Assembly (NCBI GenBank): GCA_028718605.1
Contig: JAQULM010000002.1
Coordinates: forward strand, 257,776-321,775
DNA length: 64,000 nt
DNA from: Patescibacteria group bacterium
GTDB lineage: Bacteria; Patescibacteriota; Patescibacteriia; UBA10025; JAHIVO01
Reading direction: 5' to 3'
Shown here: in pieces, positions 18,655-57,423 of the stretch
How positions within the stretch are numbered: position 1 is the first letter of the stretch
Layout of the letters: every line of letters starts with the position of its first letter
Position numbers and translations under genes: made by a program
The notes under the pieces: model-generated
Told to the model about the DNA's origin: nothing
What the model saw: the letters and a program-made list of their open reading frames with translations, nothing else
The model's database searches: none

Positions 18655-20976
18655 TCACGATTGCTGTGCGTTTTTCTTTTTGAGTATATACCACCGTAGC
18701 GCAAAACCAACGCCAGCTGCCGCACCAACGGATGCGATGACGATAACGGGAACCGAGGACGGCTGTTCGGGAATGTTCTGTGGCAACTCAACGGTACCTT
18801 CAGTCGACGTACCGAGAACGGTGCCCTCGCGCGTGGTGGCCGCTTCTGGGGCAATGGCAATATCGCCCTCTCCCCTCGGCAGTATCCGCAACCCGGCATC
18901 TGTCTTATCAAGGACTCCGGTTATAGTAATGCCGGCGCCTGCCGTAACGTCTGGCTTTGCCATGCCGGTTTTCGCTTGAATATACGCTCGGATTGAATTC
19001 CCCTGTGAGTCAACAATATAGACGCTCCGGCCGCTCACGCTTTCAACTTCACCAGAAATAGTAATCAGATCGCCAATCATCGCTTCATTAATATCGCCGA
19101 TCCCAACACGTTTAGGCGCGGAGCCGTTTGCACCATCTTCCCGCTCATCAACTGCGCTACTGCTCACCGGCGTTGCAGTTTTTTTGACGCTCCGTTCTTC
19201 GGTCTCGGCTTCTTCCTCGAGAGCATCGGCATTCTCGGCACCGGGCGTCGGTTCGTCAGTCCAGTACCATCCGTCCGACGATGCCGTGCGGGCAAATGAT
19301 AACCCTTCCTTGGCAGTTTCATACGAAACGCCGTTGATAATGCCGCCGTGCGGATCGATGAGGTAAACAGTTTCACGGTCATTATTCAGACTGATACGGC
19401 TCTCCGCGCGTTCCAAAAGAAAATAATCATGCGCTGCGATCTTCGAACCGGGCGGGAATGAAAAATACACCTTTGAATCGGTTACCTGCCAACAGTCCAG
19501 CGAGACATCGCGGCTGCCCGCATTGTACAGTTCGATAAATTCGCACTCCTGGTCCGGACCGGTGCAATTCGGGAATAGCTCGCTGAAAATAACATCGTTT
19601 GAATAATCAAAATCGGTTACGGTTACCGGCTCCTCAACTTCTGACTCGCCGCCATTGCCGTCCTGCACCAGCAATGTGACGGTGTATTTTCCCGCTTTCG
19701 GATACGAGTATTCAATTTCAACGCCATTACCGTCACCTCCATCTCCAAAATTCCAGATATACTCAAGCGAATCCCCATCGGGGTCATCCGAATCGGCGGC
19801 ACTAAACTGCACTGGCTGCCCGACTTTCGGCGATTCCTTATCGATTGAAATGATTGCTTCGGGCTGCTGGTTCGAAACGGTAAAAATATTCGCCTCTCCC
19901 GGCGTCGGCTGGTACGACCATGCCCATTCACCGTCAACCAAACTATACGAACGCCCTTCAGCGCAGCCAGCGTAGGTTACTGAATCCAGTGCGTTTCCAT
20001 TCGGCTGATACAGTGTAACGCCATCGGTTGAATTATTCAGCATAATGCCCGAAACGGACTTCGAAATCGTGAAAAAACCTCCGCCGGGAATAATCGTCGT
20101 ACTGAAATCCTCCTTCACGATTGTATAGCGCCGGGTACTCTGGTCACCGGCCTGCCAGCCTGCAACATCAACAGGCGTCGTGCCAGTATTGGCGAGCTCA
20201 ATAAATTCAGCATCGTCGCTGCCTTCGGGATTCGGAAGCAATTCGGACAACGCGATTGCGGTGGAATACGCTGGGCTTGCCGGGGGCGCTGGAGGCTCCG
20301 AGGGCTCTGCGGGATCATCAGGCGCTTCCGGTTCGTCCGGAACTTCGATGTTCAAATATTCCTGTTCAGACGCTGCGTCCTGCGGTTCGGACACGTCCCG
20401 AATATTGAAATCCGCGGCGTTTTGATCGGTGTCTTCCCCATTACCGAGATAGTAATGCGCTCCTCCCTCAACCATCGTTTCTGCCGTTGAATCAGCCTGC
20501 GCTTTGCGCTCCACGCTTTTATTCGGGCCAGGATTCGGGAGTGCCGCTCCCTCAAAAACCGACGCTGTACCAAAACCAACGGCGTCAACAACTTCTGCTG
20601 CGGCATCGAGGAGCAGGACTGTATTATTGTCAGCGATCGAGGTGGTGGTCGAGTAGTACAAATCAGGCTGTACACTGCCGAGGTACCCGGCAGGGTGCGC
20701 AACCAGTACGAAGGAATGTGCAGGAATGGAGCGGTCCCCAAACGTATCGACCAGAATATATTCCGTTCCCGAGGCTGTCTTTTTAATCAGCTGCCAACCA
20801 TCGACACTCACCGCACCATCCATCGGATTGTACAACTCGATAAACTCGTCCGTTGTCTTCCCGCTGCCGCCGGTTATTTGCACCTCGCTGATGACGATGT
20901 GGTCCACGGTTATTGCGTCACTAATAAACGGCCACGCGAAAAGCATCGCGATGAGGACAAACAGGAACTTTTTCAT
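18655..20976 (-). CDS. Large surface protein with three lamin-tail-domain (LTD) repeats, a PKD-like domain and a C-terminal TM anchor.
   Basis: Signal peptide MKKFLFVLIAMLFAW. LTD signatures IVISEVQ..DEFIELYNP, ALSELLPNPEGSDDAEFIELAN and VIFSELFPN..ECEFIELYN. The PKD-like block is YIWNFGDGGDG...KYTVTLLVQD. C-terminal hydrophobic segment plus KKKN. Confidence 0.6.
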   Translation of the reverse strand: MKKFLFVLIAMLFAWPFISDAITVDHIVISEVQITGGSGKTTDEFIELYNPMDGAVSVDGWQLIKKTASGTEYILVDTFGDRSIPAHSFVLVAHPAGYLGSVQPDLYYSTTTSIADNNTVLLLDAAAEVVDAVGFGTASVFEGAALPNPGPNKSVERKAQADSTAETMVEGGAHYYLGNGEDTDQNAADFNIRDVSEPQDAASEQEYLNIEVPDEPEAPDDPAEPSEPPAPPASPAYSTAIALSELLPNPEGSDDAEFIELANTGTTPVDVAGWQAGDQSTRRYTIVKEDFSTTIIPGGGFFTISKSVSGIMLNNSTDGVTLYQPNGNALDSVTYAGCAEGRSYSLVDGEWAWSYQPTPGEANIFTVSNQQPEAIISIDKESPKVGQPVQFSAADSDDPDGDSLEYIWNFGDGGDGNGVEIEYSYPKAGKYTVTLLVQDGNGGESEVEEPVTVTDFDYSNDVIFSELFPNCTGPDQECEFIELYNAGSRDVSLDCWQVTDSKVYFSFPPGSKIAAHDYFLLERAESRISLNNDRETVYLIDPHGGIINGVSYETAKEGLSFARTASSDGWYWTDEPTPGAENADALEEEAETEERSVKKTATPVSSSAVDEREDGANGSAPKRVGIGDINEAMIGDLITISGEVESVSGRSVYIVDSQGNSIRAYIQAKTGMAKPDVTAGAGITITGVLDKTDAGLRILPRGEGDIAIAPEAATTREGTVLGTSTEGTVELPQNIPEQPSSVPVIVIASVGAAAGVGFALRWYILKKKNAQQS

Positions 20977-21434
20977 ATATCTTTACGGTCAGTGTTTGAG
21001 GTGTCGCCGCCGGTATCGGCATACGGTTGCGTTCTGCGGCGATTTGTAAATGTATCCCATGCAATTGCCAAATTGAATAATTGCCGTGCAGATTTATCAT
21101 ATTCATTAATAAGCTTTTCACATACCGTTGTCTCAATTTGGTAAATATCTCGAATTTGTTCAAGGCTGACGACACATTCATTGCACTCAGCCATTGCGTC
21201 GTCGATATATTTCTGAAAACCACGCTTCTGATGTTTTTTGGCATACCCTTCCGCAACTAACCGGGGTGCTGCTTTACTTGACCTGCTGAGCTGATCTTTG
21301 AGGTCAAATTTTTCACATCCTGGCAATTGTGGAATTACCACGGTCATCACTTCGATGCATGCGGTATATAAATTTCTAAATACCTCTAAATCCTTAAAAC
21401 TTTTAATTGGACTACTCATATGTTGTTTACACAA
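20973..21434 (-). CDS. Four-helix-bundle protein of the family often annotated as 23S rRNA intervening-sequence protein.
   Basis: LEVFRNLY ... APRLVAEGYAKKHQKRGFQKYIDDAMAECNE matches this family. It overlaps the LTD gene start by 4 nt. The start could be 21434 or 21419; neither has an SD. Confidence 0.6.
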   Translation of the reverse strand: MCKQHMSSPIKSFKDLEVFRNLYTACIEVMTVVIPQLPGCEKFDLKDQLSRSSKAAPRLVAEGYAKKHQKRGFQKYIDDAMAECNECVVSLEQIRDIYQIETTVCEKLINEYDKSARQLFNLAIAWDTFTNRRRTQPYADTGGDTSNTDRKDI

Positions 21435-28213: not shown

Positions 28214-28366
28214 ACAATCTCCATCCTTTCTCCGTATGATTCTATCAAGATAACAATCTGTATTTTTTTTAAAACGGCTCTTCATCTTACCGCTCACGAA
28301 ATTGTCTGTCAAACTTGTATTTTTGCTATTTATATATAATATAGGTAAGATTCACAGTGAGCGTAC

Positions 28367-28450
28367 GCCGAGATGGTGCAATTGGTAGACACGCTAGCCT
28401 TAGGAGCTAGTCCCCGCAAGGGGTTGGGAGTTCGAGTCTCCCTCTCGGCA
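28367..28450 (+). tRNA. tRNA-Leu, anticodon TAG (type II tRNA with a long variable arm).
   Basis: Acceptor GCCGAGA/TCTCGGC. D-loop GTGCAATTGGTAGAC. Anticodon stem CTAGC/GCTAG with loop CTTAGGA. Variable arm CCCCGCAAGGGG. T-arm GGGAGTTCGAGTCTCCC. CCA is not encoded. Confidence 0.85.
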
Positions 28451-28594
28451 CGAAATGATGCAGAAGCACATGCCCAATGGCATGTGCGTGGAGACGAGAA
28501 AGCCGCAGTGATGCGCGAGTTTCCCGTGAAACGGGAAGGCGAGCGCAACGAGGCGGGGTCGACCGCATTTTCCGTCAGGAAAATGACGGGTGAC

Positions 28595-28615
28595 CGAGTC
28601 TCCCTCTCGGCACCA
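28595..28615 (+). repeat. 19-bp direct repeat of the tRNA-Leu 3' end (CGAGTCTCCCTCTCGGCAC), here followed by an encoded CA that completes CCA.
   Basis: Exact copy of 28433-28451, located 146 bp downstream of the tRNA. The intervening segment contains three short inverted repeats. Confidence 0.5.
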
Positions 28616-28635
28616 ATGAACAAATAGTACCCCAA

Positions 28636-28675
28636 TAAAAAGAGGGCGGGAGTTTTAGGCTCCCGCCTCAATTCG
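28636..28675 (-). terminator. Bidirectional intrinsic terminator.
   Basis: GGGCGGGAG-TTTTAG-GCTCCCGCC hairpin flanked by an A-run and a T-rich run. Confidence 0.55.
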
Positions 28676-29298: not shown

Positions 29299-29561
29299 TT
29301 CTGCACTCCTTTCTTTTTCGCACCGTTTCTGGGGCGCGAAGCTATATGTGTTTCAGGTATTTGTTTGCTCAACTCAAATGAGTAGTGAATCCTACCAGTA
29401 AAAACACACTTTTGTCAATGACGATAATAGTGGCGAGCGCACTTGCCTTTTTCTCCCCGGCGCGTACAATGACGTAATTCGCTCTTTTTCGTTTTCTGCA
29501 AAACAAACACACGTTCGTCACCAAACCCAATTCCATAGAATCCCAAAGAAGGAGGTGCTGC

Positions 29562-33677: not shown

Positions 33678-34147
33678 ATACATCGCAGCATCAGAACAGT
33701 ATCAACACTTTATCCTCAACAATCGAAAATATGCAAAAAACCCTAATAACTAACCAAAAAGGCGGCTAAATCGTACTATTTGTTGACGGTTTAGTCCCGC
33801 CAAAAGCGGGATTTTTGTTACTCCGAGCGAAGCGAGGAGTAACAACCCCGAGGGAATCGAGGGGTCCCACAGTTTGAAAGCTCAAAACGAAGAGGCGGCG
33901 GAAATATGGCTGAGGCAACAACCCCGAGAGAGCCGTCGGCGAATCGAAGGGTCCCCAAGCACTGCCGCCCAACGTACTTAATACCAAATATCCGAACTGC
34001 CGATCACTCTATCCTCGATAGAATGGTTCCAGATCAGATCTTTGACCGGACATTAACAACTGAATATGGTAGAACGAGATCTTGTAAGCAAGTTAAGTAA
34101 GTATACTAAGACACAAGGACGCAAGTTCAGTGTTTTAGTGATTGCAA

Positions 34148-37272
<3,125 letters not shown>

Positions 37273-37468
37273 CATATTGCAATCACTAATACGCTGATCT
37301 TTTTAGAATCCGTTCTACCATATGAACAAAGACTACGGTCCGCACCTTATTGCGGTCTTTGTTCTGGTGATAGTCCTCTTCGGACTTCTATTTTACCTGA
37401 CGCCGCTCTCATCCTAAGACCGGTCACCAGTGGCCAGAGAGAACAACCATGGTTCGTTGTTCGCTGGC

Positions 37469-37585
37469 CTCTGGTGATTAAGCACCAGGGTCACACCTGA
37501 TCCCATTCCGAACTCAGTCGTTAAGCCTGGTAGCGCCAATGATACTACGGGGCATACTGTCGGGAAAGTAGGTTATCGCCAGAAC
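37469..37585 (+). rRNA. rrf: 5S ribosomal RNA.
   Basis: Helix I CTCTGGTGAT/ATCGCCAGA. Conserved CCCATTCCGAACTCAG and GGTAGCGCCAATGATACTAC blocks. Confidence 0.8.
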
Positions 37586-44531: not shown

Positions 44532-44795
44532 ATGAACAATTACGTTTACATCCTATTATTATCAAACAAACAGTTATATACCGGATTTACAAATAATCTG
44601 AACCAAAGGCTTCGGCAGCATAAGGACGGTAAAGTTCAGTCAACAAAACACCAGCGGCCAGTCAAGCTTATCCACTACGAAGTTTACTTGCAGGAATCAG
44701 ACGCTCGGCGGCGTGAAAAATATCTCAAGACTACAGAAGGTAAAAGGTTCCTCAAACAACAAATCCGCGATCTGTTACTTGAAATGCAAAAGTAG
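44532..44795 (+). CDS. GIY-YIG nuclease-domain protein (87 aa), candidate homing-type endonuclease.
   Basis: YVYILLLSNKQLYTGFTNNLNQRLRQH matches the GIY-YIG motif (Y-x-Y..Y-x-G.T.N...R...H). Sits between a tRNA fragment and an intact tRNA. Confidence 0.7.
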   Translation: MNNYVYILLLSNKQLYTGFTNNLNQRLRQHKDGKVQSTKHQRPVKLIHYEVYLQESDARRREKYLKTTEGKRFLKQQIRDLLLEMQK

Positions 44796-44805
44796 CCCCC
44801 TGAAC

Positions 44806-44892
44806 GGAGGCGTGCGAGAGTGGTTGAATCGGACGGTCTCGAAAACCGTTATACCTGCAAAGGTATCGGAGGTTCGAATCCTCCCGCCTCCG
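44806..44892 (+). tRNA. tRNA-Ser, anticodon CGA.
   Basis: Acceptor GGAGGCG/CGCCTCC. D-arm CGAGAGTGGTTGAATCG. Anticodon stem ACGGT/ACCGT with loop CTCGAAA. Long variable arm TATACCTGCAAAGGTATC. T-arm GGAGGTTCGAATCCTCC. Discriminator G. The acceptor stem is extended by a 7-bp inverted repeat (CCTGAAC...GTTCAGG). Confidence 0.85.
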
Positions 44893-44914
44893 TTCAGGGG
44901 AGTAACTGAATCCC

Positions 44915-56235: not shown

Positions 56236-57423
56236 ATGGCAAACGACAATGGGAGCGGCAATGGCCTTGAACGGTATATGACCCGAGAGGAGTTTGAAAA
56301 GATCAAACAATTCGGCAAAGGGAAAGAAACTCCCTTTCTCGTCGTCAGCCTCTCGAAGGTTGCGCAGAAATACGACGAGCTGAAAAAAAACTTCCCGTAC
56401 GGCAAAATTTACTTCGCGATCAAGGCGTGCCCCATCGATGAGGTCATCTCCCTCCTGCACGCACGAGGGTCGTGCTTCGACGTCGCCTCGCCGAACGAAA
56501 TCGACAAAGTGCTCCGGCTCGGGGTCCCTCCGGAAAAAATCAGCTTCGGGAATACCATCAAGAAAGAACGGGACATCGCGTACGCGTACCAGAAAGGCGT
56601 CCGGCTTTTCGCCACGGATGCGCCGTCTGACGTTGAAAAACTCGCACGCCAAGCCCCCGGGAGCAAAGTGTTCATGCGGATCATGTGCGAGGGCGGGAAC
56701 GCGGACTGGCCTTTGTCAAAAAAGTTCGGCGCGCATCCTGATCTGATCTACAAAATCGCTCAGCGTGTGCAGGAAGCGGGATTGATCCCCTACGGCGTCT
56801 CGTTCCATGTCGGAAGCCAGCAGCGGGACATCGGCCAGTGGGACAATGCCATCGCACAAACTAAATACCTCTTCGAGTCCCTCAGAAAAGATAAAGGCAT
56901 CACCTTGCGCATGATCAACCTGGGCGGCGGGCTCCCGGCCAGTTACATCCAGCCGACGCAGCCGCTCACCACGTACGCCAAAGAAATTACGCGGTTCCTC
57001 CGTGAGGACTTTGGTGATAATATGCCTGAGATTCTCATCGAGCCAGGAAGAAGCATTATGGCCGAGGCTGGCGTTATCGTCACTGAGATCGTCATGGTCT
57101 CAAAAAAATCTACGTCCGCAAACATCAGCTGGGTATACTTCGACGCCGGCAAATTTAATGGGCTCATCGAAACCATGAACGAATCGATCAAATATCCCAT
57201 CTTCGTTGACGGCCCGAAATCAAAGGAAACCAAAGAAGTCATCCTTGCCGGCCCCTCGTGCGATTCTATGGACACCCTGTATGAAACCTACAAGTACAAG
57301 CTGCCGAAGGACATCAAGGAGGGCGACCGCGCATACGTCCTTTCGACGGGAGCATACACCGCTTCCTACTGTTCAGTTTTTTTCAACGGCTTCTCCCCAA
57401 TGAAGTTTTACGTGATGGATTGA
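56236..57423 (+). CDS. PLP-dependent Orn/Lys/Arg/DAP decarboxylase family protein (eukaryotic-type ODC fold).
   Basis: IYFAIKACP (PLP-Lys), FDVASPNE, FHVGSQ, GGGLP and the C-terminal GAYT motif. Confidence 0.7.
   Translation: MANDNGSGNGLERYMTREEFEKIKQFGKGKETPFLVVSLSKVAQKYDELKKNFPYGKIYFAIKACPIDEVISLLHARGSCFDVASPNEIDKVLRLGVPPEKISFGNTIKKERDIAYAYQKGVRLFATDAPSDVEKLARQAPGSKVFMRIMCEGGNADWPLSKKFGAHPDLIYKIAQRVQEAGLIPYGVSFHVGSQQRDIGQWDNAIAQTKYLFESLRKDKGITLRMINLGGGLPASYIQPTQPLTTYAKEITRFLREDFGDNMPEILIEPGRSIMAEAGVIVTEIVMVSKKSTSANISWVYFDAGKFNGLIETMNESIKYPIFVDGPKSKETKEVILAGPSCDSMDTLYETYKYKLPKDIKEGDRAYVLSTGAYTASYCSVFFNGFSPMKFYVMD

Follow-up and report, generated by a model that had tools for sequence, protein, structure and literature searches.

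The stretch of DNA analysed here, a window of 64 kb of Patescibacteria (CPR) chromosomal DNA, carries in this order prs, a class II tRNA-Leu(TAG) gene, a spacer closed by a second (distal) copy of the tRNA 3' end, a gene encoding a 203-aa coiled-coil protein, and purD, which is accompanied by a gene for an NAD-binding oxidoreductase. The name given to the Prs protein at NCBI agrees with an origin from Patescibacteria. While prs lies on the minus strand, tRNA-Leu(TAG) is on the plus strand, and the 203-aa gene is convergent with it and has its own terminator. An AT-rich, -10-like box is found upstream of the tRNA gene (Table 1); no call was made at this box by a consensus promoter scan, and it is on its sequence the presumed promoter of a transcript comprising the tRNA and the DNA that follows it (hereafter the trailer). 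The terminator of the convergent gene may also stop this transcript on the plus strand. The divergent prs/tRNA-Leu promoter region (28214-28366) is strongly conserved in the related loci L003, L010, L012, L017, and L019 (L-numbers denote loci or contigs of relatives, or Logan contigs), spanning lineages with only about 50% Prs identity, and the motifs common to these regions are CCATCCTTTCTCCGTA, TTCATCTTACCGC, GTCAAAYTTG, and TATATATAATAGG. An 84-aa ORF (28373-28627) was rejected as protein-coding, as it overlaps the tRNA and its frame is disrupted by indels in L003.

Table 1. Features at the tRNA-Leu(TAG) locus, with positions in the window.
Feature	Position	Strand	Basis
Presumed promoter: AT-rich -10-like box (TATATATAATATAGG) 5' of the tRNA	28330..28345	+	TATATATAATAGG-like box at the same place in 6 related loci
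tRNA-Leu(TAG), class II, CCA not encoded (GGCA then CGAA)	28367..28450	+	ARAGORN; Rfam RF00005, 55.5 bits
Proximal 19-mer: T-loop C56 to discriminator A73, plus C	28433..28451	+	sequence, repeat count, Rfam
Whole putative trailer RNA, about 165 nt, homologous to the L003 element	28451..28616	+	MFE; 86% over 118 nt with L003
Conserved 5' block CGAAAUGAUG	28451..28464	+	invariant between the window and L003
Predicted P0 5' strand UGAUGCAGA	28456-28464	+	MFE fold, partner strand 28607-28615
Hairpin A, 9 bp, loop CAAU	28466..28487	+	5 double-sided pair changes in L003
Predicted P1 5' strand (GUGGAGAC) and conserved junction CGAGAAAG	28488..28502	+	MFE fold
Hairpin B, long irregular helix with GA/GA internal loops	28503..28556	+	RNAalifold, alignment, fold
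Hairpin C, GGUC/GACC base, 11-bp upper stem, loop GUCA	28557..28595	+	2 separate double-sided pair changes in L003
Distal 19-mer plus CA	28595..28615	+	repeat; MFE fold; deleted homologous stretch in L003
Intrinsic terminator of the convergent 203-aa gene	28645..28667	-	terminator scan
Possible older degenerate tRNA-3'-like tail (TCTCCCCGGC)	29449..29459	+	same 10-mer as the tails of the L010 and L017 trailers

The repeated segment is a 19-mer, CGAGTCTCCCTCTCGGCAC, which covers the T-loop from C56, the T-stem 3' strand, the acceptor 3' strand, the discriminator A73, and one further C; the 3' boundary of the tRNA was placed at 28450/51 by both ARAGORN and Rfam. The exact recurrence of this tRNA end, put forward in the original prediction, was confirmed, with two copies at 28433-28451 and 28595-28613, and a search for further copies found none across the 64 kb at up to three mismatches. 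The proximal copy is followed by GAAATG, so that the gene reads GGCA-C-GAA and lacks CCA, whereas the distal copy is followed by CAATG (GGCA-CCA-A); as predicted, an encoded CCA, completed by the CA found at the second copy only, is thus confined to the distal GGCACCA. The distance between the copies, first given as 146 bp, is 143 nt (28452-28594), with 162 nt from start to start, and the three inverted repeats noticed within it are borne out as stems of 9 bp, about 9 bp, and 8-11 bp. The 7 nt on the 5' side of the two 19-mers are weakly alike (GGGAGTT and GGGTGAC), extending the similarity to 29 nt at 86%. Exact loss of the 162-bp unit would yield a tRNA...GGCACCAATGAAC junction. Although the source is a metagenome-assembled genome, it is next to inconceivable that the repeat arose by chance or by faulty assembly: shuffled sequence gave 0 expected matches for the 19-mer, the NCBI MAG contig (GCA_028711455.1) and an independent Logan contig (SRR22315506) showed no difference over the whole region, and a homologous element occurs in another genome. 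Two other Logan contigs, from two runs (L291 and L292), end at 28409 and a third (L002) begins at 28382, both positions lying inside tRNA-Leu, which suggests a graph branch caused by another tRNA-Leu, in the genome or in the community, whose anticodon arm is nearly identical in sequence.

When folded as RNA, the trailer has an MFE of -80 kcal/mol (z = -6.1 against shuffles), in line with the suggestion that it might be a structured RNA. In the predicted fold, a closing helix (P0) is followed by hairpin A, a second closing helix (P1, 28488-28495 paired with 28598-28604), and hairpins B and C. Hairpin C draws its final pair from the distal 19-mer, which also forms the 3' sides of P1 (28598-28604) and P0 (28607-28615), and the 3' end of the trailer is the tRNA-like GGCACCA. 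No match was found in 28452-28611 among the families of Rfam 15 at E ≤ 10, and on six related loci Rfam at E ≤ 1 returned tRNAs only. ARAGORN detected two tRNAs only in the window and no tmRNA or tRNA-like domain. No promoter-like site was found between the tRNA and the trailer, which adjoins the tRNA on its 3' side and on the same strand, that is, in the position of a tRNA 3'-trailer sRNA.

A scan of a genome collection with Prs yielded one close relative, the Patescibacteria MAG locus L003, the closest genome available (74% Prs identity), which has the same divergent prs/tRNA-Leu(TAG) arrangement. A homologue of the spacer starts 10 nt past tRNA-Leu(TAG) on the same strand (the gap in the window is 0 nt), and it is 81% identical to the window trailer overall and 86% over 118 nt, the tRNA-Leu(TAG) genes themselves being 80% identical. 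The third codon positions of prs are only 42% identical between the two, and those of conserved A/G/P/T/V/L/R/S codons, which are roughly four-fold sites, 34%, so that neutral sites are saturated. Judged by sequence identity, the conservation of the trailer (81-86%) exceeds this neutral level (34% at the near-four-fold sites of the adjacent prs). The L003 trailer also folds more stably than its shuffles (MFE -66.5, z = -3.4), and the differences between the two trailers lie mostly in helix tips and are compensatory. RNAalifold gave 44 pairs, 8 of them with double-sided changes that keep the pairing: 5 in hairpin A, 2 independent ones in hairpin C, and 1 in a weak 2-bp outer helix. Seven of these (the consecutive 5 of hairpin A and the separate 2 of hairpin C) were counted as solid; the covariation comes from a single sequence pair, the window and L003 being the two known members of the family, and the five changes in hairpin A could stem from one replacement event. 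Two G-U pairs in hairpin B (alignment columns 74-119 and 85-108) fit the plus strand, and together with the better folding energy show that the tRNA strand is favoured. The tip of hairpin B is variable, with a 4-nt indel in L003. As the trailers differ by indels of 1 and 4 nt, they have no reading frame in common.

The distal end is the part in which the two trailers differ most clearly. Most of the 19-mer copy is gone from L003 (about 11-17 nt lost), where the alignment with the distal copy reads CGA--------CT---CAC--ATCAAC, with several deletions; going by this alignment, the L003 stretch is a decayed version of the distal copy. The 3' strands of P0 and P1 cannot be aligned between the two sequences, and both helices are predicted ones, the covariation lying in hairpins A and C. 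Despite the decay, L003 is predicted to form a 5-bp P1 (GUGAG/CUCAC) and a 4-bp P0 (UGAU/AUCA), which suggests selection on the fold. A hammerhead-like UGAUGAG in L003 was dismissed, as it is absent from the window and gave no Rfam match. A covariance model built from the two trailers, R1, scored 199 and 202 bits on them, as expected from its construction, and found no copies elsewhere in the window or in 17 other Prs-bearing loci; a 17.8-bit match at 56312-56490 was rejected, as it lies within a gene and aligns poorly.

Together, the conservation, the compensatory changes, the folding z-scores, and the broken reading frame argue for a structured RNA under selection and not for decaying island DNA; above-neutral conservation and compensatory changes (from two sequences only) are both features of structured ncRNAs. 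Of the three readings originally offered, namely an excision scar, a miniature element, and a tRNA-linked structured RNA, the last is the best supported, by the conservation in L003 and the compensatory changes, whereas a recent scar is not supported. It is thus considered rather probable that 28451-28616 is a selected structured RNA of about 165 nt, cotranscribed with the tRNA and built on an old duplication of the tRNA 3' end. The trailer would most likely be transcribed together with tRNA-Leu(TAG). Processing of CCA-less tRNA genes by RNase Z-type cleavage is established, and cleavage of this kind past the discriminator could free the trailer RNA, which would then adopt the predicted fold of P0, hairpin A, P1, and hairpins B and C. 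As part of this RNA, the displaced tRNA end would supply the 3' strands of P1 and P0 and the GGCACCA terminus, and it may be speculated that this terminus defines and protects the 3' end. An insertion or duplication at the tRNA T-loop, before the split from the L003 lineage, would be the most likely source. The original CCA-bearing 3' end and the native trailer behind it would thereby have come to lie distally, and this end may later have been co-opted and kept by selection. Counting against the RNA reading, the two 19-mers of the window are identical at 19/19 positions although the T-stem differs between the window and L003, which calls for gene conversion, for selection that keeps the copies matched, or for an event of later date.

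A further property of the trailer concerns its relationship with the T-arm. On its 5' side, P1 is a copy of the T-stem 5' strand (GGAG in the window, GAGG in L003) and is followed by a T-loop-like A-CGAG; past hairpin C the likeness resumes at CGAGU and continues through the T-stem 3' strand and the acceptor strand to ACCA. This layout amounts to a T-arm-like helix in which about 95 nt stand in place of the loop. The 5' strand of P1 is also complementary to the T-arm of the tRNA in its own genome (GGAGAC/GUCUCC in the window and GAGGAC/GUCCUC in L003, with two covarying positions), a match which could reflect paralogous segments evolving in concert, functional pairing between trailer and tRNA within the precursor, or a decoy function of the distal copy. 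If such pairing takes place, the trailer may act in cis as a maturation switch, in which GGAGACGAGAA would pair with the T-loop and T-stem 3' strand in the precursor, the distal copy would serve as a decoy that captures this segment or as a second, CCA-bearing acceptor partner for the tRNA 5' strand, and 3' processing of tRNA-Leu(TAG) would be tuned. The fit of this segment to each genome's own tRNA favours such a switch, as do switch duplexes near -13.5 kcal/mol and precursor MFE structures in which the tRNA 5' strand is paired with the distal copy (window) or the trailer invades the T-arm (L003). However, a segment that is simply a paralogue of the T-stem 5' strand would be expected to show the same complementarity, the cross-genome duplex is nearly as good one way (-13.2) and weaker the other way (-9.9), the equivalent helix in the distant loci L010 and L017 does not match the resident T-stem, and MFE predictions are unreliable for tRNA precursors, all of which make a switch quite unlikely.

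The T-arm-like layout also raises the question of whether the trailer is a derived tandem duplicate of the whole tRNA-Leu, in which the D and variable arms would have been lost, the anticodon arm would have become hairpin A, hairpins B and C would represent a 95-nt T-loop insertion, and gene conversion would keep the 3' end identical. The layout is indeed colinear: CGAAATGATGC and the tRNA 5' end CGAGATGGTGC are alike at 9/11 positions, hairpin A sits at the expected position of the anticodon arm, and GGAGA-CGAG resembles the T-stem 5' strand and T-loop, while CGAGT leads on to the T-stem 3' strand and acceptor strand and then to ACCA. In a distant relative, the trailer tail of L017 aligns over 33 nt with the variable-arm/T-arm/acceptor region of an L019-type tRNA-Leu. 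Beyond its last 26 nt, however, the trailer has no significant similarity to six tRNA-Leu sequences (p = 0.37-0.99), and neither the Rfam tRNA model nor ARAGORN detects a tRNA in it, so that an origin from a whole tRNA is statistically unsupported and was set aside as very unlikely.

More distant relatives of the locus (L012, L010/L009, and L017) have Prs proteins about 45-53% identical to that of the window. In L012, tRNA-Leu(TAG) has an encoded CCA and is followed after 120 nt by purD, with no trailer element. The original prediction had named conservation of the same spacer as part of an ordinary tRNA trailer as a finding that would speak against it; this was found in part. The lack of a trailer in L012 implies that the putative trailer RNA is dispensable or lineage-specific. 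In L010/L009 the tRNA, with CCA, is followed by a 95-nt trailer of two perfect hairpins ending in CGGGGCTCTCCCCGGCACCA, and this end aligns with the T-loop-to-CCA end of the L012-type tRNA-Leu, not with that of the resident tRNA. L017 has another trailer, with a degenerate 33-nt tRNA-Leu 3' portion at its end and the same 12-mer, CTCTCCCCGGCA. The covariance model of the window and L003 detected no homology in the L010 and L017 trailers. The genes between the tRNA and purD are different in each genome compared, and together these loci show that the tRNA-Leu(TAG) locus is unusually plastic among distant relatives.

Plasticity is also seen on the other side of the tRNA. Between the conserved promoter and the functional tRNA-Leu(TAG), a 5' fragment of another tRNA-Leu allele, with a hairpin breaking its D-loop, is found in L003 (about 1470-1600), L018 (50-110), and L010 (2790-2860), in each case on the minus strand; the window itself is without this leader element. 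The L003 fragment, GTCCAGGTGG...CGGCATCCACGCCAGCC, ends at the anticodon loop, and the hairpin in its D-loop is followed by TAAACTCCA. This D-loop hairpin differs between L003 and L018 with the pairing kept. The motif GUAAACUCCAC also occurs in E. coli RNase P RNA, but Rfam gave no RNase P match.

A scan of metagenomes with a Prs alignment gave, among the matches listed, mostly distant Prs genes and one useful locus, L019. Directly downstream of its tRNA-Leu(TAG), and convergent with it, lies a gene (1396-2217) for a 273-aa XerA-type tyrosine recombinase, which has >5000 close homologs, the best 120 being 60-86% identical and the named ones mostly from Patescibacteria. This protein was rejected as an island integrase because it reaches the NCBIfam XerA-type equivalog cutoff and has so large a family of close homologs, and it is probably a housekeeping Xer enzyme. 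The 2.2 kb downstream at L019 showed no second copy of the tRNA 3' end, and no integrase-bearing island was seen at the tRNA-Leu(TAG) site in the loci compared.

Direct repeats of a tRNA 3' end are expected from tyrosine integrases, and it was originally suggested that the two copies bear the signature of attL and attR. Tyrosine-integrase islands leave displaced 3' fragments, more rarely 5' fragments, and crossover sites in the T-stem region of tRNA genes, the T-stem region being the commonest att sublocation (1836/3919 islands in Islander; PMC4383910). On an att-type reading, an integrase would have inserted DNA at the T-loop/3' end of tRNA-Leu(TAG) and supplied a CCA-less replacement end, and near-total deletion would later have left attL, a 143-bp arm, and attR, the hairpins having no role as RNA. 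The geometry is real: as att sites do, the repeat runs from the T-loop to the tRNA 3' end, and the CCA occurs at the distal copy only, followed by a trailer resembling the native CCAACAG of L012. It also recurs in distant relatives with unrelated inserts, those of L010 and L017 being short, different from each other, and closed by displaced tRNA-3'-like tails, and the window may hold a third tail (29449-29459); the variation of the genes between tRNA and purD in every relative points the same way. The start of the repeat in the T-loop and the distal location of both CCA and native-looking trailer make an integrase-type or duplication origin plausible. On the other hand, no integrase or phage domain was found by Pfam in 20 ORFs flanking the locus on both sides, and no tyrosine-recombinase box turned up when the entire 64-kb window was scanned for motifs in six frames; the sole recombinase adjoining this tRNA is the Xer-type enzyme of L019. 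Neutral arm DNA could not remain 86% identical with synonymous sites saturated, the compensatory changes and the re-closing of P1 and P0 in L003 indicate selection on structure, and the variable genes sit outside the repeats and not between them. The variable neighbour genes gave nothing convincing with PHROGs, tRNA-Leu genes were the only matches in a similarity search of phage records, and two conserved 14-15-mers had only chance matches in viral contigs, with no second block nearby. With respect to the Islander scheme, an intact tDNA is accompanied by a cognate fragment in the same orientation (19/19, same strand), whereas the interval of 143 nt holds no tyrosine integrase and is not foreign DNA absent from close relatives, as L003 has a homologue. 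The attL/attR reading accounts for the geometry of the repeat and perhaps for its origin; a recent scar or an active island, with neither integrase nor cargo, is not supported, and a miniature or remnant element whose hairpins have no RNA role is unlikely.

The locus can be set beside several known systems. Like tRNA-gene att sites in the Islander/Williams scheme, it has a 3' direct repeat in the same orientation starting from the T-loop/T-stem, with a distal CCA and native trailer, but it lacks integrase and cargo, has only 143 nt between the copies, and appears selected, with compensatory changes. Two att-like repeats with no recombinase between them are also a feature of cis-mobilizable elements (CIMEs), which in the Streptococcus ICE literature are kilobases long and were identified through the full ICEs to which they are related; for the window no such full element was found, and its insert behaves like an RNA gene. 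Among RNAs, 3'ETS-leuZ of E. coli is an sRNA from a tRNA 3' external transcribed spacer. The trailer resembles it in being a tRNA-Leu trailer on the same strand, presumably freed by tRNA processing, and differs in that the RNA would be about three times longer, multi-helix, and would end in a copy of the tRNA 3' end. The tRNA-like 3' modules of tmRNA, bacterial YrlA, viral TLS, and mascRNA share with it the order of a T-stem-like helix, an acceptor-3'-like strand, and ACCA, whereas the window trailer has no complete acceptor/T minihelix or D/T-loop elbow, about 95 nt replacing the T-loop, and neither ARAGORN nor Rfam called a module of this kind in it.

A more far-reaching proposal, which we hold to be improbable, is that the trailer belongs to a new class of tRNA-coupled regulatory RNA, a decoy of the tRNA 3' half whose T-loop has been expanded into a folded domain. 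Such an RNA might either gate the maturation of tRNA-Leu(TAG), decoy and tRNA competing for an internal anti-T-arm strand, or be handled by tRNA enzymes (the CCA-adding enzyme, RNase P/Z, possibly LeuRS). It would draw on the related architecture found after tRNA-Leu(TAG) in at least three Patescibacteria lineages, with a T-stem-like helix around inserted hairpins, an acceptor-3' strand, and A(CCA).

Returning to the favoured reading of a selected structured RNA, its implications are twofold. Direct repeats of tRNA 3' ends are routinely taken as island boundaries, and this locus, at which selection would be maintaining the DNA between the repeats as a folded RNA that now includes the displaced tRNA end, is a caution for automated island callers. 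If confirmed, it would represent a candidate for a new RNA family among the small-genome Patescibacteria, which retain little non-coding DNA, and a case in which a functional RNA has been made from what recombination left behind at a tRNA gene.

Other features of the window are worth recording. Upstream of purD, the stretch 29432-29459 contains GGCGAGCGC, the same 9-mer as in the conserved hairpin B block, and TCTCCCCGGC, which lies about 100 nt upstream of purD (a match that is only suggestive, at a shuffle p of about 0.03-0.04), a position comparable with that of the tRNA end in L012, about 120 nt upstream of purD. By their sequence, these two elements may be an older displaced tRNA 3' end at the original tRNA-purD junction. 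At 44790-44905, tRNA-Ser(CGA) lies between a leader, CCCCTGAAC, and a complementary trailer, GTTCAGGGG, whose pairing would lengthen the acceptor stem to about 16 bp and cover the discriminator, and this extended helix is possibly a processing stem. In the 64-kb window as a whole, no 16S rRNA was found. The 23S rRNA, which is followed by 5S rRNA (34142-37584), spans 3143 nt against a model of 2925 positions, which suggests that about 200 nt have been inserted into it; at 20973-21434, 13 kb from the 23S rRNA, a '23S rRNA intervening sequence protein' (PF05635) is encoded.
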